A stretch of 62,689 nucleotides of DNA, counting the filler, from Sphacelaria rigidula (Eukaryota), in assembly GCA_964200075.2 (NCBI GenBank). It is 11 parts of 11 records of this genome, joined end to end, with 100 filler letters (N's around TTAATTAATTAA, not from the genome) between each part and the next. Parts side by side here need not be neighbours in the genome. Positions count along the whole stretch, not along the records: positions 22,834 to 28,441 come from CAXNAA020025903.1; positions 28,542 to 34,149 come from CAXNAA020025904.1; 9 more parts are not named here. One strand, given 5' to 3'. The notes below the pieces were generated by a model. It saw only the letters and a program-made list of their open reading frames with translations. It did no database searches and was not told the origin of the DNA. Positions 354-59,285 of the stretch are shown here, one piece after another (the stretch's first letter is position 1; each line of letters opens with the position of its first letter). The position numbers and the translations under genes were made by a program.

Positions 354-840
354 GATGAACGCAGCGAAAATTGTGAAACTGCTATTTCGGGTGAGGGACC
401 TGGACCTGCCAGAAAGAAGAAATAGATATACCAGTCGTCGAAAGGAGGAGGAAGTACATGCACATGATGTGCCCCTGTGGTGGAGCAATAGAGAGCAGAC
501 GTCATATAGTTGCAGAATGTGAACTATACAAGGAGGAACGGGACGTGCTAGAGGGGGAAATGCGAGACGTGAAGGAAGGCCGCATGAAATCGTTTGATGC
601 ATTAGACAGTAGCGAGAAAACGATGGCTATACTAGGAGATAAAAGGTGGCCACAGACAGCTAACCAGGACGGAGATAAGATACGTGAACGGTTTTTATGT
701 AATGTATGGAAAAGACATCATGAGCGCCGGAATGTTGGAGGTGTCTCGGGTAGGAGTAGGAACGCTGATCCGTCTCGAAAGGGACGCGTGGTCAATGGTC
801 ACACGACTATGGCAAGCAACAAATGAGTACCCCCCCCCCC
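354..840 (+). mobile_element. 5'-truncated LINE, ORF2 C-terminus with CCHC knuckle, poly(C) tail
   Basis: ORF 458-826 contains CPCGGAIESRRHIVAEC and ends ASNK*, followed by GTA and C11. Degenerate TSD CCCGTCTCAAC (343-353) vs CCCTGTCTCAAAC (838-850). Homologous to about 9480-10300 and 22260-22485. Confidence 0.9.
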
Positions 841-2400: not shown

Positions 2401-2495
2401 GGGGGGGGGGCGTACTCATTCGTTGCTTGCCTTAGTCGTTTGATCATTGACCACCCATCCCTTCCGAGATGGAGCACCATTCCTAGTCCCGATAG
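2401..2495 (-). mobile_element. Short 3'-end copy of the poly(C)-tailed LINE
   Basis: Reverse complement reads ...GGTCAATGATCAAACGACTAAGGCAAGCAACGAATGAGTACG(C)10, matching the 3' end at about 750-840. Confidence 0.9.
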
Positions 2496-8084: not shown

Positions 8085-10301
8085 GAGAGTGGTAACGATG
8101 CTAGAGGGAGGAAAAATCAGCGAGGGGCAAGCAGGCATCAGACCAAACCGAGGTAGACCATGTGTACACATAGGTACGTAAGACTATTCAAGGTAGAAAA
8201 AACGCCGGGCTGACAACGGAGTGACACAGCATGGAGAAATGGGCAGTGGAAAAAGTTGTGGGAAACTAGGATCAGAGGAGGGGAAGTGATATATATGGAC
8301 AACAGTGCAGAAGATGACAGGATGTGCGGAAAGTGCGATGATGCAAGACGAGGTAAAAACAATATCGAAATGTTTTTTATATTTTGCAAGGAGTTTCACA
8401 AGAATATGAGTTGGTATCACCCGCTCATTCAAAGTATTTATCGACAATGATCTGATAGTAATGGAAGCAGCAAAGCAAGGAGTCGAGGTAGGAGGAGAAG
8501 ATACGGCATCGGGATTGATGTTTGAGGACGATTTGGTGGGGGTATCTGAAACCCCAGAAGGATTGCAAAACCAAATAGATAAGACGCTAGAATGCACGAG
8601 GAAATGAAGAGTGATGGCGAACGTGAACAAATGCGCGATACTTATACGTGACGAAGATAGGAAGGACCCGGCGGATACCAAATGGAAGTGGAGAGAAGAG
8701 GAAATGCCGAATCGTAGACCAGTAGGTATACATAGCTTTGGCGTAGAGATTTAGAAAAACTGTTCTTAGGATGCACACATATATAGAGTAATACTACAGT
8801 AGAAAAGGGTAAGGCACAGATAGGCAGGATGGACGTGATTGTAAGAGGTTCGCGCCTAGATACTAGGATCAAGATATATATTCATGTCGATGTGATTGTA
8901 CCATAGCTGGAATTTCGCGCGAATAGTATGGGAGGGAAACGCGAAGTTGGTGAAAAGGCTGGAAACAGTACAGATGACAGCAGCGAATATAATATCTGGA
9001 TGCTCAAAAACGATGAGCAATACAGCATTGAAAGCGGATTTTGGGTTGCACCCACTTACTGTAACACAAATGGAGACGCGAGAAAACTGAAATGACATTA
9101 CAGAGTAAGGATCATTCAGAGAAAGAGATTGCCAGCCATCGTTGATCGGGCCGTATATATTGTACCCACTTTAAACAGACAGAGACATGAGAATACTGAA
9201 ATTTCAAACAGCATATAGAACAAGAACATGATGGAGAGAACGGAGTTGTCAGCCATAGGTGATACGACCGTATGGAAGACAGTGACGAAAGGGCAGGCTG
9301 GAATCAGGTGGGATGGCGTAGTCGAGAAAGTATGGACGGACATGTCAGAGAACAAAGACGAGATAATGTCCATAGATAGGTGAATGTGGCGGGTACAAGA
9401 CCAAAGTAGTGAGAGAGATAGCATCTGATGATATACGGGGGTTGATCGAGGGGATGGAGATGAAAACATATCTGCATGGTGGCCCAATGGACGCGGCGGA
9501 AAATTGAAACTGCTATTTCGAGTGGGAGACCTGGCCCTGCCAGAAAGAAGGAAGCGATATACCAGTAGTCGAGAGGAGGAGGAGGGAGTAGATGCACAGA
9601 ATTCCCTGTGGCGAAGCAATAGAGAATTGAACTCATATTGTGGCAGAATGTGAACTACATGAGGAGGAGCGGGACGTGTTGGAGGGGGGAATGTGGAAAG
9701 AAAACGGAGGCGGTATGAAATATTTGGCACATTTATTTGACAGTAGCGAGAAAACGATCGCTATACGAGGATATAGATGGCGGCCACAGACGGAAAATGA
9801 GGATGGGGATGAGGTATGTAAAAGTTCTTCGTGTATTTTTTGTTTTCTTGTCCCACTTTGAACCCCTCCTCTTCCTCGGGATGAGTCCGTGGGCTGAAGG
9901 GATCATTCCATCTCTCCCCCGGTGCACGCCTTGCATTCTGGTCTCGCGGGTTGGGTCAGCACTCCCGCACCGCGTCAACTCACGTCGAACAAACTCAGTC
10001 GACTACTTTGTTTATACTCACGTTCTCACGCTTTCCACCGTGGAAATCAGATGTCACGAAAAAAATAACCAAGGCATCGGGAATCAAACCCTCGTTCTCT
10101 CAATCCTAATGACGACAGTCGGACCATTGCACCACCGGGACGCGGCGGCATATATGTGGAAGAAATGTACTGAGCGCCGAAATGTTGGTGGTGTCTCTGT
10201 CAGGAGTAGAAATGGTGCTCCGTCTCGCAAGGGATACGTGGTCGATAATCAAACGATTAAAGCAAGTAACAAATGAGTGCCCCCCCCCCCCCCACCCCCC
10301 C
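8085..10301 (+). mobile_element. Degenerate LINE: RT domain, C-terminal CCHC region and poly(C) tail, interrupted by a SINE
   Basis: Frameshifted RT motifs ISEGQAGIRPNRG, ILQGVSQ and SGLMFEDDLVGVSETPEGLQ (F[A]DD-type catalytic motif, about 8510-8570). Ends ASNK* at 10276, then GTG and a C-run. Confidence 0.9.
9836..10148 (-). mobile_element. tRNA-derived SINE, family A, inserted in the LINE
   Basis: Minus-strand head TCCCGGTGGTGCAATGG (A box) ... GGTTTGATTCCC (B box) and A-rich tail. The body matches 37410-37778 and 28893-28970. LINE homology resumes on both sides. Confidence 0.8.
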
Positions 10302-11244: not shown

Positions 11245-11317
11245 GGGGGGGACGGGAAGGGGGCGTACTCATTTGTTGCTTGCCTTAGTCGTGTGACCAG
11301 TGACCACGCATCCCTTT
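11245..11317 (-). mobile_element. 3' end of the poly(C)-tailed LINE at a contig end
   Basis: GGGGGCGTACTCATTTGTTGCTTGCCTTAGTCG...ACCACGCATCCCTT on the + strand. Confidence 0.9.
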
Positions 11318-11417: not shown

Positions 11418-11500
11418 AGAAAGAAGAAAGAGATACAGCAGTCGTCGTGTGGAGGAGGAAGTAGATAGACAGAACTGTCTTTGTGGCGAAGGAGTACTAT
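11418..11500 (+). mobile_element. Internal fragment of the same LINE family
   Basis: AGAAAGAAGAAAGAGATACAGCAGTCGTCGTGTGGAGGAGGAAGTAGAT matches about 411-460 and 9542-9600. Confidence 0.75.
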
Positions 11501-15582: not shown

Positions 15583-17839
15583 CAACGTGGTAATGTAGCT
15601 TACGCTGGGCTTCCGTGTAGATTCTGCGAGTACGAGTGTGTGGAAAAGCAGAAATTAAGAGGACTTGTGGTGTGTGAAGCGAACCTTGGTACCCCGTCTA
15701 CAGACTCAAGCCAATCACTGCCTACAGTACGACAATGACGGCGGTGCGCAAGAATGGGTGAAGAAGAGATTTGGTACCTGACACACATATACTGGGTTTT
15801 TCAGGTGGACGACCAAGAACTAGGCGTGTGTTTGCCGAGTCGTGATCTTCGTCTGTTGCTTTATCCTTTGTACTGATTTACAAAGATGTACAATTTTGTG
15901 TTTCGATAAGATGTTTGTGGGACGGAAAAGCACTTCATGTTGAGGGACAAAGGGGCGCTGGCTGACGTTGATGCACCTGACGCATCGAGTTCAACTGAAT
16001 GGACCTCGTGCAGTAGCTGCAACGAAAAAGCTCTATGCTTACAACTCTGTGCCGATAGTTTTGCTGACCCGATCCATCGACATGCAGGACTGTCGAGTCA
16101 TCTGCTCGCATTTTTCTCCTGAATGGGTCGATTATGCTTGAAGGCGCTGCCGTTTTGAATTCGTCCACGCGCATGCAATGACGTTTGATGAGTGCATCAG
16201 ACACCATCACACAGGGTTCAGATGTGATCCTGTCGTGAAGGGCTTTTGCTGGAGCGATCGTCGGTGGAAGTGGTGGAGTGTTTCGGGAAATGGCCGTTTC
16301 GCATCTCATTCCGAAAGCATGTTGGCACCCCAGGTCACACACGTATCTTGCCGATTGTGAAGACAATGACAGAAATTCAGGTGTGCAGTGTGTCGGATCC
16401 AGTGTCGTTACCGTGTGTGTGTTGATCAGATTTGTAACCGTATGGGAATGTACGAGAAATCGTTTGATTATTGTGCCTAAACCTTGCAGCCCTCCTTGGA
16501 ATAGTATGTGGACGCTGTGGGCATGTGTGTGTTGACGTTTGGTCATTCATCATGCACATACGCAAAGAAAAGGTTTGAAGGAAGGGCGGGGGGTACCAAT
16601 TGTGCGTGGTGATTCGATGAGGTCGTGCTGTGACGAGGATATCTGGGTTGTTTTCATAGTATTATGGTGAAATGCCGAAATGGGCACAAGTATGTCCTTC
16701 CTCTTTTGGTGTTTGTCGAGTCAGAAAAATCGCGAGTGGAGCCGGTGGGTTCGCCGGTATCCACACGTTTTCGAGTGTTGCCCGTTGTTGTTGTGTGCTA
16801 AGCATGTGGCTCACGTCGCATTATGTCACATGATTGCCAGGAACACGGGACTTTTACAAATCGGGGATGGATCCTTTATTGGGGATGAAAACCCGGACAA
16901 ATAAACTCTTCGTATCCACACCAAATCTTCGAATCATGCTTCCATTTCTTCACTTACTGGAGTGATGCTGCGATAGGGTCTGCGCTTTTGCGGCCTGAGA
17001 GGAAATCGGGATTTAGGCATGTCGANNNNNNNNNNNNNNNNNNNNNNNNNNNNNNNNNNNNNNNNNNNNTTAATTAATTAANNNNNNNNNNNNNNNNNNN
17101 NNNNNNNNNNNNNNNNNNNNNNNNNCGTGTGTCAAAGGTGTTGAACTTGGCTTCAGGCTACGAGCCCGTGTTGGAGTCATTATTTCGTGTCGGTGAGCCA
17201 GCAAAAGAACTGAAAGAAACCAGACCCCCAACGAGTTCTAGGATTGGGATATGACAGTACGTTGAAGATATTCAACGAATACAAATAAAATGAACAATCT
17301 GGAGATTCTCACGGAAGACATCGAGAGGGAGAGAGACAGTAAGGAAGGGCGCGTGGAGGAGTCAAGAGTGGTCTGGGAAGGTACTAGTAGTGCTGGTGGT
17401 CGGAGTTCGTAGCGACCTGACGAGAGTAGTGTTTAAAAAAAATGCGATGAAGTTGGATTATACCGTTTGGCAATAGGAAAAGTTGAAAGGGAGGAAGAAC
17501 ACTTCCGAGCCACACTAAAGAAGAGAGCGAGCAAGTAGTGGGAAAGGATAGAAACGAGTAAGGTATCGGCATGCCTTAGAAGGGTAGGATGGAGAGTATG
17601 CATTGCTAACGGGATAACAAACCTAAGACGTAGTGCACGGGCAAACGGAGGGAAAGAGAGGCAGGAGCAGGTGAATGCCCGGAAGGGTAGGGAGAAGGGA
17701 CACAGCACCCCGAAACAAATGGACGAAGTCCAATCCGGCAAGGGGCAGAACAATCAAGCAAGGGAAAGTAGATGTAGGAGACACGGGAAAAGGATAGGAG
17801 ACAACAAGAGAACAGATACTGATTCGGAAGGGATGTTGA

Positions 17840-18501
17840 GAATGAATCGTGGAACGGGTGTGAATTCGGCACAGACGAGCGCAAAAGAAGAGACATAGCG
17901 TAACAAATGAGAAACACGATCTAGATATAGTAGGGATCCAAGAGTCATGGGAGAAAGAGGGGGTGAAATTAGGAAGCAGCACATGGATAAGGAAACAGCG
18001 GAAGGGACAGAAGGACAAGGGAAGGTGAGCTGGGGGAATAGGGTTTTTAGTCAAGGAATACCAGTGTGACATTGTAGAAGTGATCGATGACACAAAATTG
18101 GACGAGAGCATATAGATAAGGGTACCAGGAGAGCGGGGAACGAAGGGCTTCTTCGTAGAGAACATCTATATGCCCCCAGAATCGAAGAGTACGGTGGGCG
18201 GTATTCAGCGTGGGTTTGGAGAGATAGCAGCAGATGTACATAAGTATGAAAGGCAAGGAGATGTAATGTTAGTGCTAGATTTTTATGCAAGGGTAGGAAG
18301 AGCAGGTGAACCCGATGATATTGCTGGGCAATACGGGGAGGATAAGACGAACACGAATGGGGTAGAAGTGCTCAAGTTCCTTGAGCATCACGAGATGAAA
18401 ATGCTGAACGATAGGGTACCAAAGCCAAAGGCGCAATGGACATCGACGAGGCAATGCAAAGGAAAAACAGAACGCTCCGTTCTTGACTATCTAGTGGTAG
18501 A
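17840..18501 (+). mobile_element. LINE ORF2 APE endonuclease domain (degenerate)
   Basis: Motifs SWN, DLDIVGIQESW, GGIGFLVK, IYMPP, DFYARVG (for GDFNARVG), NTNGVEVLKF and RSVLDYLVV, in APE order. Confidence 0.9.
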
Positions 18502-21500: not shown

Positions 21501-21862
21501 CAAGCTTGCATGAAGCTCTTGTCGAAAGCAGCGGAAGAGATTGTAATTCTTTGCTGAAAACGACGGTACTATCATGCACGAATGATGTCTGAGTTTGTCA
21601 AGCTCCGATGTAACTACTTGTTGGTAGTAGAGAGCTTTTGGGGTGCTGTAGACTCTAGCCACCATTGTTACCTAAGGTTAGGGACATCGTAGGTAGAGTT
21701 GCGGGTCTGCTTGCCGGACTCTGTGATAATGACCTCCATGGCGAGTAGAGCCGGTTTTGCTACTCTGGTGGAGAGAGGCTATGGTCCTGTTTTCCTGTAC
21801 TCTGCTGAGGGTTAATATCTAAATAACTAAAGCTGCTGAAGTCCATGTGCCCGTGATGGGAG
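18502..21862. mobile_element. LTR element inserted in the LINE, with a degenerate interior and a truncated right LTR
   Basis: Direct repeats of about 217 bp (18502-18718 and 21647-21862), both starting TGTAGACTC. The inverse GAGTCTACA lies at 18751-18759. The internal ORF 19441-20178 has a duplicated MLEAAGGCY segment. No RT or integrase recognised. Confidence 0.75.
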
Positions 21863-22485
21863 AATATTTGGATGCTCGAAACGACGAGTAATACAGTTTT
21901 GAGAGCAGAGTTGTGAACGTACTTACTTAAAACAAACAGAGACAGGAGGAAGTCCCGATGGCAATATAGCTTGAAGAACATGCAGAGAAAGAGATTGCCA
22001 GCCATGGTTGATAAGGCCGTATGGAAGAAAGGTACGAAAGAGCATGCTATAAGGTGGGATAGAGAAGTCGACAAAGTATGGACAGAGATGGGAGAGAATC
22101 AAGACGAAGTTCTGTTCACAGATGAAGGCGCGGGGAAAAAAATGAGAGATGTGATAGGAAATGAGGGGGAAAAAAGCTCTCTGGCGCAAAGTAGACGAGG
22201 AAGAAGATCTGGAGATATACGGGGGTTTGTGAGAGAGGGCATCGGGATGTGAGCATATTTGCATGGCCCAGTGGGCGCGGCGAAAAATATGAAACTGTGA
22301 TTTCGGGTGGGGGACCTGGACCTGCCAGAAAGAAGAAAGAGATGTACGAGTCGTCGCAAGGAGTCACAAAGTAGATGTGCAGAAATTGCCCCTGTGGCAA
22401 AACAATAAAGGGCAGAAGTCATATAGGGGCAGAATGTGAACTATACAAGGAGGAACGGAACGTGCTTAAGGGGGAAACGCGGGAC
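21863..22485 (+). mobile_element. LINE ORF2 post-RT / CCHC region
   Basis: NTVLRAEL, KRLPAMVDKAVWKK, FRVGDLDLPERRKR and CPCG...HI.AECELYKEER. Homologous to about 9000-9690. Confidence 0.9.
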
Positions 22486-23079: not shown

Positions 23080-25987
23080 TTTCAAGTGCAGGTCGAGTAG
23101 TGTGTACTCGATACTCAATACTCGGTATTTTGCGAAGTCATACTTCTAGTATCCAAAAATTGAGGAGAGTATTTGACATTGTACTCAATCTATCCAATAC
23201 TTGAGTGAAGAAGTATTTGAGGTCATACTCATTCTACTCAAACTTTGAGTAAGAGTATCGAGGCCATACCCGAGTGATACTCTATACTCAAGTATTACTG
23301 CGAGTACTCCTCCAATATTTGAGTAGAGTATTTGAGATCGTACTCAATCTACTGAGAATTTGAGTAGAGTATTTCAGGCGGTCATACCCAATCTACTAAA
23401 AAATGGAGTAAAGGATTTGAGGTCGTACTCAATCTACCCAAGCAATTTGAGCAGAGTACTATTGAGGTCATACCGAAGTGATACTCTATACTCAAGTTTT
23501 ACTGAGAGTCCTTACCCAATATTTGAGTAGAGTATTTAACAGCGGATCGTGAAAAGTGGGGTCGATCTAAAAACTGAGGTTCAAGTGGCATATCTTCTTT
23601 GCAGGGATGACGCGAAACAGTAACACAGAGCGAAACCACATTCCCCCCCCAAACTCTGCAACTGTGAATCATCAGTTGTGGCTGAATGCACCGAACGACT
23701 GCTGTGTATACGCGTGTCGATGACGATATTACCGGAGAGAGAAGCAACGACAGAGAGGAAGCTCCCCGCCCGTGTCCTTTGTGTGCCCTCGCTGGGCGGT
23801 TACTCATCGCTCGAGAGAATGGCATCATGCACGTTACCAGCACGCACCGAATTTCTCATGCGCCGGTAGGTATCCTCAAAGAACATCGAGCTGCGGAGAG
23901 ATTTCGTCTCTTCTTGTCTCTGGAGGTCACCAATGCGAAGATCGATTTCTCTCTGCTTCTCTTTCTCAGGGAACAAGAGTCATTTCAATCATGTGGACTT
24001 ACCTTGAAAAACCGAACTGTTTTGTTTCCATAGGTGTTCCGAATTCGGGTTCATAGCAACATGTTGTTACCGTGTGTTACCCGCTCTCGGTAGACGTTTT
24101 GCAGACCGGAGTCAGTAGAGTAGAGCAACGAAAGCCCCAGATTGCAGCTGACGCACCCCTATGCACGACGCTAGCAACAGTTAGGTCACCACCACACTTA
24201 TCTTTTTTCACTCCGCATGTCAAGAAGGTCTCCACAAGCGTTTGATCTCTCTCTCTCTCACACACCCCAACTGGCCTGTGGCAGGCTCTTGTGGTCAGGC
24301 GTCATGATGGTCAGATATGTCAGGGTAAAATCAACGATGAATAACACCCCCCAAGTTCCAATTGGATCATCTTATCTGTTATTTTTGCCGCAACGCACCG
24401 TCCTTGCTGGCATATGTGTGACAGAGATCAGTAGCAGCGGCGACGGGAAGATTGCGCTGTTTTTCAGCGCACAGAGGCGCGTCCTGTCCAAACAGAGAGG
24501 CAGAGAGAAATCGATCTTCGCATTGGTGACCTCCAGAGACAAGAAGAGATGAAATCTCTCCGCAGCTCGATGTTCTTTGAGGATACCTACCGGCGCATGA
24601 GAAATTCGGTACGTGCTGGTAACGTGCATGATGCCAGTCTCTCGAGCAATTGTTAATCGCCCAGCGAGGGCACACCAAGGACACGGGCGGGGAGCTTCCT
24701 CTCTGTCGTTGCTTCTCTCTCTGGTAATATCGTCATCGACACGCGTATACACAGCAGTCGTTCGGTGCATTCAGCCACAACTGATGATTCACAGTTGCAG
24801 AGTTTGGGGGGGAAATGTGGTTTCGCTCTGTGTTACTGTTTCGCGTCATCCCTGCAAAGAAGATATGCCACTTGAACCTCAGTTTTTAGATCGACCCCAC
24901 TTTTCAGGATCCGCTGTTATTTGAGGCCGTATTCAATCTACTTCAAATTTGAGTAGAGTACTGAGGCCGTAGCCGTACCCAGTCTACCCAGAATTTGAGT
25001 AGAGCATATAGTTGGGCATTTTACCCCAGTATTCACAAGTATATACTGTACCCGACTTGCGCTTGCACTGTTTTCACGGCTGGGTCACCCATGGAGGAGT
25101 TACTATGCGGCCCGTAGAGTCGCTCATTTTGAGAATATCTACCCGACTTCCCGTTTTTTACTCGATTACCCAATGATGGTGAGTAGCGCTATATACTGAA
25201 ACGGATATCGAAGAGGCTGCAAAGTATAAAGTATGTACCGCCATAGGCACGATAAGTGTATATCTTAGGCGAATAGTTGAGCGCCCAGCTGATCAACTGT
25301 GCCGCTTCGTAAACAGGTGCATAACGGTCGCTTTTGGATCTTGTATGACGTGGAATCATAAGAGTTGAACGATAGATATGTGCGCATTGGGAGCTCGAAG
25401 TAGCGTAGCTTACAAATTTTTTGAATTATGATTTTGAGTGAAGACATGTCTTTGGGGTCGGATGGCGACTTTCTTCACGAGCCCCCAAGTTCCACTCTCT
25501 CATCGTCGCCTTGGATTTCACCAGTACAGTAGAGGTTAATCAGATACTTCTTGGGCGAATGGACCCTCAGCAACAAGACTACTAAGTAGTTCCTGAGTGT
25601 ACTTTATTCCTTCGATTGACTCTGCTTCTACACTTTTATGAGCATTGGTATATGACACCCGGCCAGTAAACACAACCCACAAGCGTACAGCAAGGGGAGG
25701 CTTGATGCTGGGAAGATATCACTCGTCTGCCTTTGAGCAGCTAGGGTGGCAACCTTTCCCCCTTGACAACTGCGAGTACTTACCCAGATTTTAAGGAGAT
25801 TATTTGAGGTCGAACTCAACCTACCCAAATTTTGAGTAGAGTGTTTCAGGCCGTACCCAATCTACTCGAATTTGAGTAGAGTATTTGAGGCCGTACCCAA
25901 TCTACTCAAAAATTAAGTAAGGTAAACAGTGGGTCATTTCACCTCAAGTATTTTTAGTTACGTACTCTACTCGACCTGCCCTTGAAA
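23080..25987. mobile_element. TIR element with internal ~40-bp quasi-palindromic tandem repeats
   Basis: 21-bp TIRs TTTCAAG(T/G)GCAGGTCGAGTAG (23080-23100, 25967-25987). Arrays of GAGTAGAGTATTTGAGGCCGTACCCAATCTACTCAAATTT-like units at about 23160-23537, 24919-25005 and 25790-25920. No convincing TSD. Confidence 0.65.
23538..24918. mobile_element. Non-autonomous DNA transposon with ~425-bp TIRs and a 4-bp ATTT TSD
   Basis: Arms 23538-23962 and 24494-24918 are highly similar. ATTT is duplicated at 23534-23537 and 24919-24922, and removing the element restores an intact satellite unit. Confidence 0.9.
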
Positions 25988-27952: not shown

Positions 27953-28622
27953 TTGAGAAACACTCTGCACCCCCCTTGCCCGAGAGTTGTCGGTATGCCT
28001 TCGTCGATGTTAGGGTTATCGCTAGGGTTCGTGGCATCGTCATAGTACCAACCATTGCTTACGTATATTTCCCCTCTGTGAAGTACTTGTGTAGGGATGC
28101 ATCCTTGTCACAAGGGCATATCTGTCATTCCTGCCCCAAGGGTATCCCTGTGCCTGTCATCGCTGCCACAAGGACAAACCTGTCAACCCTGTCACGAGGG
28201 TATCCCTGCGCCTATGCTTCACAGGTGCATCCTACGGGTTGCATGATCACAGGGATTTCGGCACCCCCATTTTCTGGTCAATACAGGTGGTCCACAGTGC
28301 GGACGTTTGCCCACGCGTGTGCCTTGTTCAGCTTGTCAAAAGCTTACCGCACGGTCTGGTGTTTGCTGCTGACTAAGGCCAAGGCAACGTTCAAATGTTT
28401 TCAACTGCATTGCTCTCATGATCTCGTGACATTGGCGGCATNNNNNNNNNNNNNNNNNNNNNNNNNNNNNNNNNNNNNNNNNNNNTTAATTAATTAANNN
28501 NNNNNNNNNNNNNNNNNNNNNNNNNNNNNNNNNNNNNNNNNCCCTCCCCCCCCCCCCCCCCCCCGCCTGCTTTTTTTTCTTCTTTCCTTTTCCCCCCCCC
28601 CCCCCCCCCCCCTCCGGTCACG

Positions 28623-28672
28623 TGGTCAATGGTCAAATGACTAAGGCAAGCAACAAATGAGTACGCCCCCCC
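28623..28672 (+). mobile_element. Minimal 3'-end insertion of the poly(C) LINE with a perfect 17-bp TSD
   Basis: CCCCCCCTCCGGTCACG at 28606-28622 and 28666-28682 flanks TGGTCAATGGTCAAATGACTAAGGCAAGCAACAAATGAGTACG. Confidence 0.92.
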
Positions 28673-28682
28673 TCCGGTCACG

Positions 28683-28970
28683 CGTTTAATCTCTCCCCTT
28701 TCTCGGGACGCCCGTGGTCTCTAGGGTTAATCCCTCTTTACCCCCAGTACACGCCTTGAACTTTGGTCTCGCGGAGTGTATTCGCACCGCCGGACCGCGT
28801 CGAAGCTGGTCAGACAAACTCGGTCAAACGAACTGTTTTGGGAATAGACAAATAAAGGTATATCATGTGCTCTCTAATATGAGAGAGATATATTGATCCC
28901 TTGAGACTTCAGACTCATCCCGAGGAAGGGGAGTGATTCAAAGTGCGACAAATAAAAAAAATGAAAAAAA
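28683..28970. mobile_element. Two partial family A SINE copies in opposite orientations
   Basis: 28690-28830 resembles 9870-10000. 28893-28970 is the 3' end GATCCCTTGAGAC...CTCATCCCGAGGAAGGGG...AAAAAAAA. Confidence 0.6.
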
Positions 28971-28976
28971 TCTCAG

Positions 28977-30467
28977 GAACAATAGAAGGTAGCGCACTTT
29001 TCGGTTCGGGGTGCGCGGCGCTGCGCGCAGGCTGGGCACCTTGAAAACGCGTTCCAAAGCTTCAGCCCCACGCCCAATGTGCTTTGGCAGCATGCCCAAC
29101 TTCGTTTGTTTTATTCACGGTAACAGGCTTGCACAGGGCGCGGAAAAGGAGACCTTGTTCGAGCACCCTATGTTGTCAACATATCAGCCAGGTATACCCG
29201 ACTCTCAGCGAAAAGTTTCATCTGCCCCTTTTTTGTTCACGTGCGTACCCTTTCATGTTTTTTTTACATACATCTGCAAGCCTGTGTTTGTTCAACGGAC
29301 CCTGCCGGGGAGTCTGGTGTGGACACCCAAATATACTCTTTTTCGCCAGTTCACACCCTTCCGCAACGACCGAAAGACCGAGGAGCCCAACCACCCAGAA
29401 TTCATGGCCTACTGCTGGTTGTCCCGCAGTCCCGAGAGATCCCGCCATGTGTGCAGGGCGCGAGGCTTATCTGCGGAAGTTCGCAAAATTCCGAAGAAGT
29501 GTGAAAAGTACTACCTTCACCCGCGCGTCATGTGGAGAATCAGAGCGTAGCGGGATCTGACATTTGTGGATCGGGACAAATCAATATCAAATGCAGCTGT
29601 CAGATCGGATCGCAGTGAAGTACGAACGGTATTACCCACAATCGGATGTACTGCAGAGCAAATGCTTTACAGAATTTCACCGTTTAGAGAGTAGCAACGC
29701 ACCAAGTGCCACAACGCATTGGGACCATGTCGGTGCCCCTCACTAGCGATGCTATGCAGCAGCGGGGCAGCGCCGCTGCCCTTTACCTGCGCGAATTATG
29801 CACCCCAGTCAACTCCCCCCAACAAAAAGAGGTGAATGGGTGGCCGCTGGTACACGTCATCCGCATTTTAGAGCATATTTACATTACGAACTGGATGGGT
29901 TCAAAGACGTGCGTACAGAATGAACCCGGGTGGTGAAGGTAGTACTTTTCACATTTCTTCGGAATTTTGCGATTTTCCGCAGTTGGGCGTTCGCGCCTTG
30001 CACACATGGTGGGATCTCTTGAGACTGCGGTACAACCAGCAGCAGGCCATGATTTCTGGGTAGCTGAGTTTTTCGGTCTTTTCGGTAGGGTGTGAACTGG
30101 CGAAAAAGAGTATATTTGGGTGTCCACTCCAGACTCCCCAGCAGGGTCCATTGAACAAACACAGGCTTGCGAATGTATGTAAAAAAACATGAAAGGGTGC
30201 GCACTTTAACCAAAGGGGGCAGAAAAAACCTTTTGGCTCAGAGTCGGGTATACCTGGCTGATATGTCGACAACATAGGGTGCTCGAACAAGGTCTCCTTT
30301 TCCGCGCCCTAGACAGGCCTATTGCCGTGTGTCAAAAAAATAGAAGCTGGGCATGCTGCCAAAGCACATTGGGCGTGGGGGTGAGGTGCTGGAACGCGTT
30401 TTGGAAGTACCCAGCCTGCGCGCAGCGCCGCACCCCGAACCGAAAAGTGCGCTACCTTCTATTGTTC
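28977..30467. mobile_element. Non-autonomous DNA transposon / foldback with ~545-bp TIRs
   Basis: Inverted arms 28977-29525 and 29925-30467 start GAACAATAGAAGGTAGCGCACTTTTCGG and enclose a ~400-bp spacer. The mirrored ORFs in the track come from the arms. Confidence 0.85.
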
Positions 30468-30489
30468 TCAAGAGCACAGGGTATACCCT

Positions 30490-30660
30490 TTTTCTTCCCT
30501 CTGTTCCCCATCTACTTTTGTTCGTAACGTCTTCATGCTTTCAACAACGACGCAAATCGGATTCTTTGAAGAAAAACAAAACCAAACGCATCGGGCGGGA
30601 CGAACCCACGTTCTTTCCACCCTGATGGTGTCAGTTGTACCCATTCGACCACCCTGGACA
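30490..30660 (-). mobile_element. Family A SINE, 5' tRNA-like head
   Basis: Reverse complement GTCCAGGGTGGTCGAATGG...GGGTTCGTCCC, similar to 37690-37778. Confidence 0.6.
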
Positions 30661-31135
30661 AGACCGACACAGGACACTTACCGGGCAAGCACAGAGGCAG
30701 TTGCGGGACACCCACGACATGCGCGAAAACGCAGCGAAAGAAGACAAGGCCACGGGCCTCCTACCAGCACAAGAAAAAGAACATGTGCTGCGGCAATTAT
30801 CCGTGTCCGTTTTGTTGCGCATGTAGTGTCCTCAACACTATCAACAAGACACTTCTCGTCTTGTTTAGCTTGGCATGGCTTGTCGATGTTCCCGGTACTA
30901 CACCCGACCCGAGAGGAGAAGCACACACACACATACACACACATTAGCTCTCATCATTTCACCGTGATCTTTCTTGAATCCACCCACCTGCCCTGTGTGG
31001 GGGTCGCGGAACACGGGATTAGAGCAGCTCGGCAGCGTGCACTGCGAATAGCCTCGCATGTCTCTGCGCGGCCACTGTCCTCTCGCCATCGCCATTTGTG
31101 CTTGTATAAGGGACGCACGAACAGTAGCAAACGGG

Positions 31136-31166
<31 letters not shown>

Positions 31167-31300
31167 GCGGAGAGGGATCATCACGCTTTCGCTTGCTGGG
31201 GGCGACGTGGCATGAAATTGCATATGGTTTGAAAGGCAGTTGAGCAAGAGCGAGAGAATTTCAGGAAGGCAAGAAGGAGCGAAAAAAACTCCGGCGAGTG

Positions 31301-31346
<46 letters not shown>

Positions 31347-32343
31347 TACGTACATGGTGTAAGCTGATCGAACGATTGTCGTGACGTGTGCTTGATTTCG
31401 TTTTTTCCGAATGGGGAGGTGGGGGGAGGGGGAGAGAAGGCGGGAAGAATATTAGCTTACTGCAGGACAGCATGGAGCTCCACAAAAAAATCGTTCGGCA
31501 ATACTCGAGTGAAACAGTGGTTGTGAAAAATGTTTGCTTCCTACACGAGAATATGTTGAAAAAAATAGCACTTTGATTATACGGAACCCTGACCAGCGTC
31601 ACCTGTGTCCGTGTTGCTTTCTACTGTTACGGTAGTGCTACTCCACACAGCCACCTACCCACTTTTTGCACCTTGATTCCACCCTTTTTTGAGCGACGGA
31701 GCGGCGGGTGGGAAAGTCGATCGATCTTCTGCGAAGCGCACTAGTTCATACCTACTCATACCTACTTGTGCTGTGTAAACCAGTAGGTCGCTACTACTTA
31801 ATGGCTACCGGTTGCTGGTCACACTATCTGTACTCGGGTGTCTGGCAGCTGCAGCAAGCTAGCTGCGATGGCCAACTTTTCTACTGGCGGCGGTACTGAA
31901 GCTGAGAAACGGAGCAGACGACGTACAGCATAAAATATCACATATATTTTCTCTGCACGTACGTCCCACATGGTCAGAGTTCATACACGCCTCCGCAAAC
32001 ACCGCTTTCACACTAAACGCTACATTTTGCTTCGGCTCAAGAATTCTGGTAGTGTGTGTTGTCCCGTTTTTTACGTACAGCAGCGTCCCACTAGAATCAC
32101 CACAAATTGAAGCATCCGCGACCAAACAAATCGAACTCAATGCGGTGTGCACTCGGTGCCTTTGTCCCCATCAACTCATCAACAACTCCGTACCATCAAT
32201 CAGGGTAACCCGAAAATCAACGCTGACGATTATGTTATTGCTATCTCCTGCGGAGCTATTCACCTCTCCCCCATTAGGCAAGCCTGATTGACCGTCGTGT
32301 ATCTTGTTAACTCCTGTCCTTGAATATCTGGCTACCCTACTCC

Positions 32344-32985
32344 CTATTCCCCTAGCGCGATGGAGACGCCCTCTGCACCCTCCTCCGCCTCGCTGACATT
32401 TACCATAAACGCCCTCGATTTCCACCGCCCTGCTCGTTGGATCTGTAGTTCGGGCATTCCTCCAACCGCTAGTTGTGTGGCCCCATCTATCCTTCTTGAG
32501 TGAAAAGCGTATTGAGACGGATCTCTACTCGCACGATCGACCATGGTTCGTAACGCCGTTACTGCTTCAATCCGAGTAAATGTCTTCCATTCCGTCGGCG
32601 TGGCTCTCGTGGTCAGAGGTTCGTGGCCTGGCAGTTGTGGGTGCACGTCCAACAAATCCAACAGCGCTTCGAACGCGTCCGCCGGTACTCCGCCCGATCG
32701 AACCGAGTCAACCATCCGTGTTCTCGTAATGATGAAACCTGTCCTTTGTTGGTCGGATTTGCAGGCAACGAAACGGACCTTCACTTGGTTCACCAACGCG
32801 CGGTTCGCGAAATCTAACTGCACCTCTCCCCGGCAAAAAAACTGATGCACTTGCGGGTTAAGCAGAATTCTGAGTGGACGGTACCGTCGGGGTACGCCCA
32901 CAACTCGGATGCCCTGCACAGCAAAAAAGACGAGAGCGCGAGACTAAGCCAAAGAACGTGGCCACCGCCTGGGTCCTCGGTTTTT
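32344..32985 (-). pseudogene. Tyrosine recombinase of a DIRS/Ngaro-type retrotransposon, inactivated
   Basis: LLCRASEL (first catalytic R), KSDQ, HSRRIDGAT (HSxR) and GRWKSRAFMVNV, where the expected catalytic Y reads N. Frameshift at the A-run near 32835-32841. Confidence 0.88.
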
Positions 32986-33059
32986 GTCCGTCGCTCTTGT
33001 TTTACAGGCTGGTTCACGGAAAAGAAAAAAAAACTACTCATCGGCAAAACTTCACGCCG

Positions 33060-34149
33060 TTTCAAGGAGTTATATCCTGAAATTTTGCAAAGGTGTTCTA
33101 TTGGTCATTACCCAACTTTGTGAGGACGAACTTTTTTTTTCTTTCTGACTGTTTTCACTGTTTTTCCGGGGTCCCAGTTTTTTCGGGAAAACTTCGATCC
33201 GGTTCAACCCCCGTAGAACGGTAAAAACTAAAAAACTAAAAAACCCCGTCCATACAAAGTTGCGTAATGATCCATAGCACACCTGTGCAAAATTTCAGTG
33301 TCTAACTCCTTAAAACGGCGGGAAGTTTTTCGCGCTTATGCGATGAACCTTGCCGTGCCACGGTGAAGCGGGAAACTACTAGATTATGGTATGAATATGG
33401 TGTTTTGGGGCCTTTTTCGATGTGAACATGAAAATTCAAGCACCAGTTAATAATAGAGTTTGGCCACGAAACTTTGTAGGTTTTTTCCTTGAGTTTTGCG
33501 GCGGCAGAGCGTTCGCGAAAAACTGAAGAAAAAAAAAACTGTAGTGCCGGTTTTCCGGGGTCCCAGAATGTATGACTTCGAAAAACGACTTGGATCCCGT
33601 CGGACCCCCGAAAAACGGTAAAACATTCAATAATTAGAAAAACCTCGCTGATCGAAACTTGCGCAATGATTTATAGCACATTTGTGCAAAGTTTCAGGGT
33701 CTAAATCCTACTAAATGCGTGAAGATTTGCGCGTTTGTGCGAGGATGTGAGCTTAAAACTTGCAAACCCCTAACTACTTGGTTTGAGTATGAAAACATCT
33801 TTTAGGGTGAATTTCACGTCAAGGCAGGAAACGTTTATGAGATTTTCGAGTTTCTCCACCAAACTTTGTACACGTGTTCCTTGGACCATCCTGGGACGCA
33901 TCATGTTATTATTTTTTTCTTTTGAGTCATTCTGTACCGCCATTCGGGGGTCTTTGTACTGCGACCCCCGGAAGGCGGTAGAGAACGGGAAAAAATTGAA
34001 CCCTTGCCAAGAACACAATTTTTCCATTTGGAGCATCAATACCTACGGAACTGCCAAGTTTGAGGGTGATCTGAGCTTTTCTACAACATATATAAAGGAA
34101 ACCGTCACGAGGCTCCCTGAGTCTTTCCTGCGCATCACGTGTGGAAATT
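33060..34149. repeat. Degenerate ~360-400-bp tandem subrepeats, probably a DNA transposon or Helitron remnant
   Basis: CCCCG...ACGGTAAAA...GCACA..TGTGCAAA.TTTCAG.GTCTAA recurs near 33210, 33607 and, more diverged, 33966. Confidence 0.5.
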
Positions 34150-34249: not shown

Positions 34250-34324
34250 CCGTCCCGGCATTGTAGGGATGCGAGGTCAATGGTCATATGACCATGGCAT
34301 GCATGGTCATGAGTACACCCCCCC
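34250..34324 (+). mobile_element. Poly(C) LINE 3' end, subfamily 2
   Basis: GGGATGCGAGGTCAATGGTCATATGACCATGGCATGCATGGTCATGAGTACA(C)7. The same variant occurs at 51174-51273, 57088-57248 and 58620-58661. Confidence 0.8.
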
Positions 34325-34532
34325 ATACACACACCCCTATACACACACACGCATGTACGCACACGAAGAACAAGGGATATGCAGGTGTGAGGGTCCCGAA
34401 GGATAACAGGGTCCAAATCTACCCGCTAGTTGGGGACAGGTTTGATTATCTCGCAATATAGTATGGGTTTACGGTGACGGAACCCGTCGTGCGACTACAC
34501 ATGAATTTGGCATATCCTCCTCCCGCGACAAC

Positions 34533-34603
34533 CGCTCCGTCTCTAAAGGGATGCGTGGTCGATGGTCAAATGACTGAGTCAAGCAACAAGGGAGTACGCC
34601 CCC
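34533..34603 (+). mobile_element. Poly(C) LINE 3' end with TSD
   Basis: TSD CCCGCGACAAC (34522-34532) / CCCACGACAAC (34601-34611). Confidence 0.85.
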
Positions 34604-34771
34604 ACGACAACAGCTTGCGAGTTGGCAGTTTCACTATTCACGGTAAATGGTTTGATATTCGCTCTCCCGCCGAAAAATGTTGCACCGTTTCATGTTCGCT
34701 GCAGCAGGGGTCAAAGTACACCCCCCCTCCCCAGCCTCACCCCACCAATACTAAGGTGTAGATTGTCGCAT

Positions 34772-35790: not shown

Positions 35791-36007
35791 GGATGCAGCG
35801 GCGTGTATTAGTTTCCATTAGTTGGTCTTAATGCGGGAGTGCTGATGGTCATGATCCAAGCCGCGAGACCAAAACGGAAGTCATGTAACGGGGAGATATG
35901 GGTGGATCCCTCGACGCCACGGACGTATCCCGCCCGGAAAGTGTGAAGGAATGTTTGCGATTGTTTTTACGTTTTTACTGGCGTGCATGCGATTGGTTCG
36001 TTTGCAG

Positions 36008-36114
36008 CAAGGATACATCAAAAGGACGCCGTTGGGAGCCTTCAAGTCCACGACCTCAAGAGGACTCATTATCGTGACGCTGGCAGAGACGGACACGCTG
36101 CAGTGGGTCAAAAG
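36008..36114 (+). CDS. gyrA: DNA gyrase subunit A C-terminal pinwheel, internal exon (nuclear-encoded, organelle-type)
   Basis: ttgcag|QGYIKRTPLGAFKSTTSRGLIIVTLAETDTLQWVK(R)|gtgtgt. Resembles the GyrA blade motif GYIKKT.L.AF.....GLIAI.L...D.L.WV. Ends in phase 2. Confidence 0.85.
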
Positions 36115-36189
36115 GTGTGTGTGTATGTATGTGTACGTGTTATTTGCTTCTTTCCTTTTTTGGTCGATGGGACTTGGCGGTGTAACATC

Positions 36190-36575
36190 CCTCGCACAGG
36201 ATGATGGTTTGATACAGGACTGGAGTAGTGCGTCAAAGCAGGGTTCAAACCGGAGCCTCGTGGGGAGGGGTTGGTGAAGTGGCAGTAAAGCTTGTGCGAG
36301 AAGATGACGTCTCTGTGTATGAATGTGTAGAAATGCCAAAATATTTGTGCACTTGGAAGAGTCTCTTCCCATGCGTTCGTGTCAAGCAAGTATGTATTAT
36401 TTTTGTTTCTCACGTGTTGGTCTACTATGTCGTTCTGTTCGACTTTTTTTCTGTTCTTCCTTTTCTTGAGCGAGTGTTTCAGATTTGCTTTTGTTGGGTA
36501 CATCTATCATGCGACTACGGCTGGACTCATGGGTGGTCAGTTCAAGTGGGACAATCAATCAATCATCAATCAATT
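36190..36575 (+). mobile_element. Probable RTE-like LINE 3' remnant with an (AATC)n tail
   Basis: Ends ...GGACAATCAATCAATCATCAATCAA. A similar terminus lies at 49700-49770. Confidence 0.4.
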
Positions 36576-36750
36576 TCCGGAGCATGGGTGGCAGCGTTCA
36601 CCCTCCGGTCGGCCGACGATACTGAACTATTCACATGACAGACGAATCCCCCCCTCCCCTCCACTAAAAACGCGGTGTCGTTTCGCCAGCTGTGTTTCGG
36701 CATTTTCCCCAAAATGTGTAGAAAAAGCGTTTGACTGACTTCGTCTGAGT

Positions 36751-36818
36751 GGGGGTGCGTGGTCAATGGTCAAACGACTAAGGCAAGCAACGAATGAGTA
36801 CGCCCCCCCCTTCCCCCC
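36751..36818 (+). mobile_element. Poly(C) LINE 3' end in a gyrA intron
   Basis: GCGTGGTCAATGGTCAAACGACTAAGGCAAGCAACGAATGAGTACG(C)8TT(C)6. Confidence 0.9.
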
Positions 36819-37409: not shown

Positions 37410-37778
37410 TTTTTGTTTTTTTCCTCATCTCTGAGTCTCTCGTGGCCTTCCTCGGAATGAGTCCGTGATCTCAAGGGATCCATCTCTCTCTCTCTCTCTC
37501 TCTCTTCCCCGCTTTACGCCCTTACGTTCTGGTGTCGCCGATTGGATCATGACCATCAACACTCCCGCACCGGGTCGATGGCGCGGCGTCGATTGTTGTC
37601 TAACAAACTCAGACAAACAGACCCTTTTTGACCCTCACGTCGTGACACGCCTTCAACGACAGGCATCAGATACGTTTGAGAAAAATATGCCAAATTAAAC
37701 GCATCTGGCGGAGATTGAACTCACGTTTCGCCCGTCCTAACGGTGTCAGTTGGATCATGACCACTACACCACCGGGGC
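37410..37778 (-). mobile_element. tRNA-derived SINE, family A
   Basis: Head GCCCCGGTGGTGTAGTGGT (A box) ... GAGTTCAATCTCC (B box). Body and tail match 9836-10148. Confidence 0.8.
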
Positions 37779-40495: not shown

Positions 40496-40554
40496 CAAAA
40501 ATTGGAGAGGGCAACTCGAGATATGTGAGGAGCATTCTGCAGCTCTTTGGACAG
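40496..40554 (-). CDS. AAR2: Probable further AAR2 exon
   Basis: ttttcag|LSKELQNAPHISRVALSNF(W)|gtatag, in phase after a 101-nt intron. Weak sequence support. Confidence 0.4.
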
Positions 40555-40655
40555 CTGAAAACGGAACATGGAGCGAGTGTACACTACAGCGTATCCAACC
40601 CCACATATCACGGAGGGGAAAATAAAGGGTGAACGGTTGAATGCTAATGGCGCAC

Positions 40656-51173: not shown

Positions 51174-51273
51174 GGGAGGGGGGGTGTACTCATGATCATG
51201 CATGCTGACCATTGACCTCGCATCCCTACGATGCCGGGACGGAGCACACCGGGTTCTCGCCGGACCAGGCTCG
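51174..51273 (-). mobile_element. Poly(C) LINE 3' end, subfamily 2, at a contig end
   Basis: GGGGGGGTGTACTCATGATCATGCATGCTGACCATTGACCTCGCATCCCTACGATGCCGGGACGG on the + strand. Confidence 0.8.
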
Positions 51274-57084: not shown

Positions 57085-57087
<3 letters not shown>

Positions 57088-57129
<42 letters not shown>

Positions 57130-57248
57130 CGGGGGGGGGGGGGGGGGAGGGGGGGGGGGGGTGTACACATGGTTTTGCATGCCATAGTCATAGGACCATT
57201 GACCTCGCATCCCTGCAAAGGCGTGACAGAGCACGCCAGGTTTCGCCT
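57088..57248 (-). mobile_element. Poly(C) LINE 3' end, subfamily 2, with a ~75-nt C-rich tail
   Basis: Long G-run, then TGTACACATGG...GACCATTGACCTCGCATCCC on the + strand, and another G11 run at the other junction. Confidence 0.8.
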
Positions 57249-58619
57249 TGGGGGGGGGGGGTTAGAGGCTGAAGTTACTCGAGGTTCATGAATGGCTACG
57301 CATTATTCTTTCGGAGCGCCTTCCAAAACTTTGCGCCGTGAATGAAGACCGAGGCAAAATCTAAATCTTAGCCCTCCTATATCCATGTACACCCAAGAGT
57401 AGGCCCGCGACAACATGACAGCAGTATACTACGATCATAATCCGAAAAAGAGACGAACAAAATCGACACCCGACACAACGATGGGCGAAAATGAGCTGAT
57501 CCGTGGAGCAAAAAAACTAAGAGCGCTGTGGAAAGCAGAACAATAAAGTACACCAAAGACCACTAACTGACTACTATATTAGAGAAAGAACCGCCGGGAA
57601 AAGGTCTGGGGGAAATCAACTGCAAAATCATATTCAAAATATTTATGGATTGGCTGAACGAAAAGAAAAAAAGGTGAGGAAACAAGAGGAAACAAAGAGA
57701 GAGGACGGACAAAACAAAGTCACCTGTGCCGGGGCGATGACGGAGTGCTGCAAGAAAAATAATGCCACAGACGACATGAAAGATCCAACGGCTATCTTCA
57801 CGTTGCGCATCTTCTCTCGACGGTTAGCCTAAAGAAACACAAGATACCGACGCGCGTGCCCCGGAGGGTGCGGGGGAGGAGGAAGAAAGGGTACGGCATA
57901 GTGGGGAGCATCAAGTAGAATGCTCAAGAGCGTCGCCGTCAAGACGTGAAATGCGGTTTGTCAAACTTTGTGCAGATCAAGTTGAGAAGCACTCACACAC
58001 ACACACACACACACACTAAGAACTGCGCGATGCGACGGGATGCCAACGCAAACATCCTCCGCTGGTGTCGTCGTCAGCCATGCGTGCGAATATCGAGGTG
58101 ACCAATTGTTCATTTTGCCTTGGTGTCAAGCGAGACTCGTTCTCCTTGCCGTTCCTTCACCCTATTTTTCCTCGCCTCGCCTCGTGTTGCCCTTCCTTTC
58201 TGGTATGTTGATTCTTCCCTTCTCAGTTTGCTCCGTCTCGGCTCTCCTCCCAACCCCTTTTTCTTCCCGATTTCTCTCACATTCCTCGACTTTCGTAAGA
58301 GTACATATGGCGACTGTTCCGTTTTCCCGTGCCCTTTACCTTAGGGTACGCTACGCCTATCGGGTGACCACCGCTGAATCTCTTGGGGATCAGTCGTCGT
58401 GCAACAATCGATCCACCAACAAAAAAATCATGGGGTATATGCACCCCGTTGCAAAAATCATACTCATACTGTCACTTCATCAACCCCGCCTTCCCCCCCC
58501 CCCCCCCACCCCAAGCAAACACACACACGCACACGAGGCAGACAACGAGTTGGCACATGGCGCTCGTTACTGATCTCATTTTTGTAGCTACCTACGCCTC
58601 ACTTTGTGAAAGGGTGGGC

Positions 58620-58661
58620 GGGGTGCACATGCCGTCCGTAGCCACAAGATCATTGACCTCG
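58620..58661 (-). mobile_element. Old minimal poly(C) LINE 3' end with a degenerate TSD
   Basis: TGTGAA-AGGGTGGGCGGGG (58605) and TGTGAAGAGGGCGGACGTGG (58662) flank TGCACATG...ATCATTGACCTCG. Confidence 0.6.
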
Positions 58662-59285
58662 TGTGAAGAGGGCGGACGTGGCGGGACCCAATTAGAAAAA
58701 ACAAAAAAAAGGGTAAAATGAGGACTTTCGAGCAGCCTCTGCTGTTCAAATCCCACACACTGTACTGCTGTCAGCGTATGAGATTCGAACGGGAGAGATT
58801 GTTCAAAAACTGTCGCCTTGCCCCCCAATTCATATCAATCGGGCAAAACGATGTTCTTCCAACAGCCTCTGCTGTACAAATCCCATACACTGGCTGTTAG
58901 TATATGTCCACACGGCCACGCTACGAAGCTTCAGCTGGTGATGGTCGATAAACTGCGTGTACCCTCCACTTCTCCAAACATAATTTTGAAAAAATCGTAG
59001 TCCCCGGCATACCATCGCATTGTATTTGCATAAAAGGGCAAGTTGGATCGAGCAAAAGAAGGCCGCATCGAGTAATCTTGGTCGCGGTTTGTACTTCGGA
59101 AGGGATACGAGTCAGTACAAGCACGCACCGGTACGGTGCTGTACTGGACCGTACCATTCCGTGAAGGAGCGTGGATTACCGTGCTGCAGAGTACGCGGTA
59201 TGTGTTACGTTTCGCTACAATTTGCATGCGTGCAAACACGGGGGGTGTTATGTGCCGTCAGCTTCCATGTACGGTGTAAATAGTG

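Follow-up and report, generated by a model that had tools for sequence, protein, structure and literature searches.

The closest known relatives of the element described here come from the brown alga Ectocarpus, whose transposable elements were curated in 'Characterization of the transposable element landscape shaping the Ectocarpus genome' (Genome Biol 2025, PMC12477816). The curated TE family table of that study (Supplementary Material 3) lists RTEX-1_Ec32 (LINE/RTE-X) with 'single EN-RT ORF; (C)n 3'', a length of 5867 bp and a 'C-rich' TSD, and RTEX-2_Ec32 with '(C)n termini/TSD', 5582 bp and again 'C-rich'. Two non-autonomous families, RTEX-N1 (607 bp, the last 60 bp 83% identical to RTEX-1/2) and RTEX-N2 (188 bp), are also entered as 'C-rich' and share a 3' end of 60-100 nt with the RTEX LINEs (PMC12477816). 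The same source gives RTE-X elements and RTEX-N1 as the most abundant families in Ectocarpus, and RTEX-4_NV or RTEX-1_BF as the best blastp matches of Ectocarpus RTE-X. RTEX-1 was also reconstructed in Saccharina, where it is called recently active; the passages covering the reconstruction do not mention the tails of the Saccharina element. Neither 'C-rich' nor 'homopolymer' occurs in the main text of PMC12477816, and we found no discussion of a mechanism there.

Other LINEs end in short tandem repeats, namely (TAA)n in the I element and (TGTAA)n in UnaL2 according to PMC3747384, and (CAA)n in RTE-1 and RTE-2 and (CA)n in CRE-1 of Ectocarpus according to PMC12477816. Searches combining poly(C) or C-rich tails with non-LTR retrotransposon, LINE or TPRT returned no paper on the subject. 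Two 'poly-C' papers, PMC5381506 and PMC9942856, are irrelevant here, their poly-C content concerning tracts of the L1 3' UTR and the TIR of a DNA transposon, respectively, and a search of the brown-alga microsatellite literature gave organelle papers only.

Here we analyse a window of 62,689 nucleotides from Sphacelaria rigidula, made of 11 pieces of ~5.6 kb each that are joined by N...TTAATTAATTAA...N spacers.

Copies of a C-tailed LINE in the window

Self-BLAST of the 11 pieces revealed a short repeat common to many sites. With a profile built from the tails, we identified 10 solid copies of a ~65-nt LINE 3' end (E ≤ 4e-11), whose tail ends lie near 840+, 2401-, 10301+, 11245-, 28672+, 34324+, 34603+, 36818+, 51174- and 57151-. 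An 11th match of the same search (58636-58663, minus strand) is weak, with an E value of 0.013, and seven extra matches with E ≥ 0.49 were judged to be noise. The initial annotation had counted 11 ends that pass into a C-run and never into poly(A). This description holds for the 10 solid copies; the end that it placed near 58620 is the weak match, which lies on the minus strand and not on the plus strand.

In a common orientation, all 10 solid copies finish with ...GGTCAATGGTCA...ATGAGTAC(G/A/C) and then a C-run of 5 to >70 C, sometimes interrupted by a T, A or G. Most runs measure C5 to C14, and that of T10 reads C13 T C17 G C43. No poly(A) or A-run was found within 60 nt 3' of the tail in any of the 10. 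Two subtypes can be distinguished, an A-type (T1-T5, T7, T8) and a B-type (T6, T9, T10). The 5' starts of the window copies fall between positions 3363 and 5108 of a 5152-nt reference, which marks them as 5'-truncated. The copies and related fragments are listed below, where L010 denotes an intact copy on a contig outside the window.

T1: 355..840, + strand, last 486 nt, encoding ORF residues 1205-1360, TGA stop codon at 826-828, C11 tail
T2: 2401..2495, - strand, 85-nt 3' end, then C10
T3: 8086..10301, + strand, longest and oldest window copy, from RT to the end, ~70% identity to L010, tail C14 A C7
Interruption of T3: ~9835-10153, unrelated tRNA-like repeat
T4: 11245..11317, - strand, 3' end cut by a piece boundary, tail C5TTCCCGTC7
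Short internal fragment of the family: 11418..11491, + strand, reference positions 4733-4806
5' part of a LINE copy: 17126..18501, + strand, 5' UTR of at least 210 nt followed by the N-terminal domain and APE (aa 1-409)
C-terminal fragment: 21870..22482, + strand, aa 1073-1274, without tail, behind a 216-nt direct repeat
T5: 28623..28672, + strand, 5'-truncated, last ~45-52 nt of the element, then C7
T6: 34250..34324, + strand, B-type 3' end cut by the piece start, then C7
T7: 34534..34603, + strand, 65-nt 3' end, then C5
T8: 36739..36818, + strand, 64-nt 3' end, then C8TTC6ACC
T9: 51174..51273, - strand, B-type 3' end cut by the piece end, then C7TCCC
T10: 57087..57247, - strand, B-type copy of ~97 nt, tail as given above
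T11: 58605..58663, - strand, weak and diverged tail-like fragment that ends in CCCGCCCACCC

T5 is a profile match at E 9e-18, with 45 nt at 100% identity to L010; the CG at 28621-28622 can be assigned either to the element or to its TSD. The 5' flank of T10 is a C12 run (57250-57261, which reads G on the + strand). Altogether, the window copies are decayed, mostly 5'-truncated remnants of an APE-type LINE that has a single ORF and comes from brown algae.

The repeat that interrupts T3 (9835-10153, antisense) has an A-rich 3' end and, when its reverse complement is inspected by eye, tRNA-like A and B boxes. Related stretches occur at 28677-28825, 28883-28961, 35852-35932 and 37410-37576. Probably, this repeat represents a tRNA-derived SINE that is partnered by another LINE; the C-run into which T5 apparently inserted borders a further copy of it. 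ARAGORN detected no tRNA in the window.

Among the remaining sequences, an ORF fragment at 40493-41491 (-) contains the AAR2 C-terminal repeat region (E 2e-16); AAR2 being a nuclear spliceosome-assembly gene, the pieces are therefore eukaryotic nuclear DNA. A borderline Pfam match to the DNA gyrase A C-terminal beta-propeller at 35855-36274 (+) (27.4 bits for a cut-off of 27) coincides in part with a repeat copy and is possibly a false positive. Two inverted repeats (23537-23962 versus 24494-24919, 97% over 426 nt; 28977-29521 versus 29932-30467, 87% over 548 nt) and a cluster of ~70-77% identical repeats in piece 3 (13907-15557) are other, unclassified repeat families.

Protein architecture and family assignment

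In the window, RT, the CCHC-like motif and APE survive only as degraded fragments. None of the 145 ORFs of at least 104 aa and none of nine read-through frames gave a Pfam RT or APE match, because the copies are too broken, and their mapping needed an intact relative, P0003. This protein (1360 aa) and P0006 (1328 aa) were among seven proteins retrieved with the 143-aa ORF that finishes at the T1 tail, with 59% and 58% identity to the query, respectively. Both carry Exo_endo_phos, RVT_1 (E 1e-30 in P0003, 2e-32 in P0006), a CxCx8Hx4C motif and the tail-coding end ...VVNGQMTKASNK, and their C-terminal end ...SRKGCVVNGQMTKASNK is the translated tail. APE (Exo_endo_phos at aa 170-392 of P0003) is N-terminal to RT in the same ORF, an arrangement that is intact in L010, which has an open frame of 1382 aa with 88% identity to P0003. 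The L010 contig was binned into a bacterial MAG, evidently as algal contamination.

APE, RT, CCHC-like motif and tail-coding C-terminus thus belong to one ~1360-aa ORF in P0003, P0006 and L010, in the order N-terminal domain, APE, RT, CCHC-like motif and conserved ...VVNGxxT(K/M)A... end; an end of the form ...VNGxxxMA... is retained in relatives of only 35-43% identity. The stop codon of L010 is the TGA within ATGAGTACG, 5 nt ahead of a C13 run. Since this TGA lies inside the terminal ATGAGTAC motif, the 3' UTR amounts to ~5 nt plus the (C)n tail. No second ORF of at least 80 aa was found upstream on the same strand in L010. At ~4190 of L010 (- strand), a GTG aligns to the start Met of P0003 and the first ATG gives 1333 aa, not 1382; this otherwise intact copy may have lost its start codon.

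The tblastn matches of P0003 in the window are the following, with further C-terminal pieces at T1, T2 and T7.

8086-9834: aa 766-1319 (RT to C-terminus), E 3e-72
10154-10273: aa 1321-1360
17339-18541: aa 1-409 (start and APE)
21881-22482: aa 1073-1274

The APE region is represented by 17882-18541, 59% identical to P0003 aa 181-409, and the whole 5' part at 17126..18501 shows 51-62% identity by tblastn and corresponds to L010 positions 862-2239 by blastn. The initial annotation had connected tail, CCHC, RT and APE, relying for APE on piece 4. There, a 3.3-kb stretch of foreign sequence intervenes between the APE part and the C-terminal part, so that piece 4 by itself is weak evidence and no proof of the APE-tail link; the connection itself is proven by the intact relatives P0003, P0006 and L010.

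In the same piece, a 216-nt direct repeat (90% identity, 18502-18717 and 21647-21862) bounds 2.9 kb of unrelated DNA, including a 256-aa ORF (19408-20175) with no Pfam match. This block lies between the LINE 5' part, which ends at reference position 2239, and the 3' part, which starts at 4272; since these LINE coordinates are non-contiguous, a simple insertion does not account for it.

That the family is an APE-type LINE, as initially annotated, is borne out: RT and an N-terminal APE share one ORF with the CCHC-like motif and the tail in the intact relatives, and the copies are 5'-truncated with TSDs of variable length. The features used for RTE-X in the Ectocarpus curation, a single EN-RT ORF and a (C)n 3' end with a C-rich TSD, are also present. 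RTEX-1 and RTEX-2, as listed in PMC12477816, share with the window family the single EN-RT ORF, the (C)n 3' end, C-rich TSDs and, probably, short non-autonomous partners, and their length of ~5.5-5.9 kb can be counted as a further likeness; across these listed features the match appears to be complete. One Ectocarpus protein, P0007, has the same tail-coding C-terminus as the window family. The Ectocarpus proteins do differ, with 48-58% identity to the query (the 143-aa window ORF for P0007, P0003 residues 160-1000 for P0008). On the features of the published table, the window LINE most likely belongs to the RTE-X group, and it probably represents an RTE-X sister family from a different brown alga. 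A Jockey/CR1-like affinity, considered for its C-terminal Cys motif and an Exo_endo_phos_2 match, was dropped, as the curated library points to RTE-X.

The combination of a (C)n tail with C-rich TSDs is therefore not new, being already catalogued for the closest known family (PMC12477816). The initial annotation knew of no such description for an APE-type LINE, while allowing for existing library entries; the Ectocarpus RTE-X entries largely amount to an existing annotation of this behaviour. Its comparison with L1 is likewise to be kept as an analogy only, as the only curated LINEs with a (C)n end in the Ectocarpus library are RTE-X (PMC12477816).

The analogy has some substance. L1 and the window family have in common APE and RT, TPRT, a homopolymer tail, TSDs that open with the tail's own letter and the logic of primer-tail pairing, and the best solved-structure match of the P0003 RT is human ORF2p (E 7e-21). 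In contrast to L1, the window family has poly(C) instead of poly(A), one ORF instead of ORF1 plus ORF2, a 3' UTR of ~5 nt, and a conserved 3' end that recurs in a putative non-coding partner, in keeping with a template choice of the stringent and not the relaxed kind. The features of the L1 clade are absent in that there is no poly(A) in 10/10 window and 5/5 external copies, the TSDs are C-led and L010 has no separate upstream ORF. The short-repeat-tail LINEs (I element, UnaL2, Ectocarpus RTE-1, RTE-2 and CRE-1), as described in the two sources above, resemble the window family in their non-poly(A) tail right after a conserved 3' end, in a tail length thought to vary by slippage and, probably, in SINE-like partners that share the LINE 3' end. 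They differ in that the tail unit of the window family is a single C and that, in its autonomous element, the conserved 3' end codes for protein. Stringent LINEs of the L2/UnaL2 type also have a stable hairpin before the repeat tail, whereas none is predicted in six copies of the window family.

Further searches had the following outcomes: the window APE fragment had no PDB match at E ≤ 1, the ESM Atlas returned generic EN-RT clusters only and no clade, and a scan of a viral contig collection gave no match. No 3' ends were found in the other LINE-like loci, L012-L018 of G001 and G002.

The C-tail outside the window

Two large collections were scanned with a probe consisting of 20 nt of the tail without any C-run. 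The probe found nine loci, of which five are real copies (L002, L003, L004, L008 and L009) and four are chance matches. All five real copies continue with G/C and then a C-run, none of the chance matches does so, and a poly(A) tail is present in 0/5. Two diverged tail relatives, L021 1501-1600 and L022 1501-1580 (76-81% over ~50 nt), have C-rich ends too, and the L021 fragment is flanked by a possible CCCCCGCC pair.

Contigs from four public runs of two studies were also aligned to 28542-34149. Those whose match stops at 28670-28675, inside the C-run, number 861 in X1, 1027 in X17, 679 in X19 and 152 in X20, and they continue with a plurality of C for 15-20 more positions and with mixed bases afterwards, although the plurality overstates the typical tail length and short-read contigs render homopolymers unreliably. 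This shows that hundreds of copies per genome have C-tails, and none has a poly(A) consensus. The tail followed by a C-run and never by poly(A), as initially described, is thus found again in 10/10 window copies, in 5/5 external copies and at hundreds of contig ends in each of the four runs.

Target-site duplications

Duplications were counted over the eight copies with a definable 5' end. Three have clear TSDs of 11-17 nt (T5, T7 and T1) and two have weak ones (T2 and T10).

T5: CCCCCCCTCCGGTCACG at 28606-28622 and 28666-28682, perfect 17/17
T7: CCCGCGACAAC at 34522-34532 and CCCACGACAAC at 34601-34611, 10/11 matching
T1: CCCGTCTCAAC at 343-353 and CCCTGTCTCAAAC at 838-850, 9/10 with one indel
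T2: 2491-2504 and 2392-2405, weak, 10/14, beginning with CCCCC
T10: weak, C12 upstream and a very long C-tract downstream

The positions first proposed are exact for 28606/28666, 34522/34601 and 343/838; the pair 58605/58662, which belongs to the weak T11, is not confirmed as a TSD. The accompanying claim that readable TSDs start in C-runs agrees with the clear cases T5, T7 and T1 and with the weak cases T2 and T10. In all five copies with a TSD, the upstream copy opens with 3 to 21 C, with a T or A before it. CCC precedes 1.7% of window positions, which gives P(≥3 of 8) = 3e-4, a value to be read with TSD boundaries that were set after looking. In T5, the upstream duplicate begins within a C21 run (28592-28612), of which it takes up the 3' end, and the first 7 C of the downstream duplicate are indistinguishable from the tail.

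The other three assessable copies (T3, T8 and L011) have no C-led TSD. T8 shows a possible AAAAGCG pair (36723 and 36832, 29 nt into/beyond the start of the C-rich tail), which could be a counter-example, that is, a target without a C-run, or a chance match. For the intact copy L010, a search of the 1067 nt upstream revealed no TSD. No joint that removes T5 was found among 15 of 265 joints listed for public-run contigs on 28542-34149, none of the contigs listed bridges the T5 site, and no empty site came to light; contigs begin inside the repeat at 28648/28649.

Three conclusions follow from these duplications. As the upstream TSD copy opens with at least 3 C, a C-run pre-existed at the target in these five copies. 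As the downstream C-run exceeds the upstream one in T1 (11 versus 3), T2 (10 versus 5) and T7 (5 versus 3), the element would supply C of its own, a comparison subject to the fast change of homopolymer lengths through slippage and to the exception of T5 (7 downstream versus 21 upstream). Finally, TPRT geometry implies that the opening bases of a TSD are complementary to the 3' terminus of the nicked strand, and the primer would therefore have ended in G.

Possible recognition of the 3' end

The B-type copies are 72-75% identical to the A-type across the last 55-64 nt. T6 and T9 have an in-frame stop upstream, and their frame differs at the very end; T6, T9 and T10 are non-coding over the shared 3' end, all three being short or cut. 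The B-type is probably, as judged from these copies, a non-autonomous family that shares just the last ~65 nt with the LINE. Because the terminal ~65 nt are kept despite the stop and the frame change, selection on the nucleotide sequence is indicated. By analogy with stringent LINEs and their SINE partners, as presented in PMC3747384, this suggests that the RT may recognise the RNA 3' end. No stable shared 3' stem-loop was predicted in six folded copies (z-scores +1.06 to -2.37), and the sole predicted structure shared by these tails is a 5-bp GGUCA/UGACU hairpin.

Proposed mode of integration

We propose that an RTE-X-like APE LINE with a C-tail of its own is primed by oligo(G) at C-run targets. 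This is the best explanation of the data, with a probability of roughly 0.6. The endonuclease would nick the strand that bears the G-run, in or beside the run, and the liberated 3' oligo(G) would anneal to the C-run located at the RNA 3' end or close to it, priming reverse transcription and following the same pairing logic as the T-rich primer of L1 on poly(A). The RT would locate its template through the conserved terminal ~65 nt, homopolymer slippage would make tail length variable, and old tails and other C-runs could become later targets. From the sequences at hand, oligo(G) priming on a C-ended RNA appears to be the best and most economical reading; the nick site, the base-paired priming and the source of the RNA C-run are the parts that we infer.

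The C-tail could also be foreign to the element, which would then be site-specific for existing (C)n/(G)n tracts, all C past GAGTACG being TSD. T5 fits such a model well, since it adjoins C21 and its downstream C7 falls wholly within the perfect 17-nt duplication, as do the C-runs on both sides of T10 and the wording '(C)n termini/TSD' in the RTEX-2 entry of the published table (PMC12477816). Free tracts do exist, as 11 of the 20 C/G runs of at least 8 nt in the window adjoin no recognised tail and nine touch a copy. However, the longer downstream runs of T1, T2 and T7 are not expected on this model, and the C plurality over 15-20 positions in hundreds of contigs would need very many long prior tracts, making it unlikely. 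The unattached runs comprise 6766-6801 (C36), 28546-28564 (C19), 50116-50138 (G23), 50237-50253 (G17), 58493-58507 (C15) and six shorter ones, and could represent free tracts, very short copies or the tails of relatives that escaped recognition.

Slightly less likely still is that the C-run is made at integration, the RT or a terminal transferase adding untemplated G before copying an RNA that ends in GAGUACG, with C-runs at the target being incidental. Some retroelement RTs add untemplated nucleotides, and the wide range of tail lengths (5 to >70), with single T, A or G interruptions, would suit such an activity; it leaves unexplained, however, why the upstream TSD opens with at least 3 C in 5/8 copies when such a triplet precedes 1.7% of positions. 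Poly(C) added to the RNA post-transcriptionally by a nucleotidyl transferase, as poly(A) is on L1 RNA, is a formal analogue of polyadenylation only, and we consider it very improbable: we know of no RNA poly(C)-adding activity of such kind, and L010 already carries a genomic C13 right after the conserved end, so that read-through transcripts would be enough to template the run. Sequencing or assembly artefacts, such as the poly-G calls of two-colour chemistry, can practically be set aside, for although some runs sit at piece ends (57087-57161, 28546-28564) and homopolymer lengths are unreliable in short-read contigs, the runs are internal, flanked by unique sequence and TSDs, and recur in the independent assemblies L002, L003, L004, L008 and L009, in four runs of two studies and as (C)n in a library curated from another genome (PMC12477816).

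Oligo(G) priming at C-runs may be extended into a more speculative scheme, which we put forward tentatively and with the odds against it. In this scheme, an RTE-X endonuclease would have evolved a preference for G-tracts, the RT would recopy a short terminal C template in a telomerase-like manner, and the resulting tails of >70 nt would become landing pads. We found no test of this scheme and no discussion of it in PMC12477816, as far as its main text is concerned. If it were true, this LINE would be a main maker of the poly(C)/poly(G) tracts in brown-algal genomes and would offer a natural TPRT system in which primer and tail pair through G:C and not T:A.

Significance

With the descriptive facts on record for Ectocarpus, the remaining value of the family is mechanistic and comparative, and a moderate interest is left in the biochemistry of G-primed reverse transcription and in the origin of the RNA C-run. 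The family looks recently active, because relatives have intact ORFs and the 45-nt copy at T5 is 100% identical to an intact element, and experiments are therefore feasible. A homopolymer-C tail is rare among described LINEs, and a poly(C) LINE provides a natural contrast to L1 for separating the contributions of endonuclease specificity and primer-tail pairing to target choice. For brown algae themselves, this LINE may account for part of the long C/G tracts of their genomes, tracts that hamper assembly.
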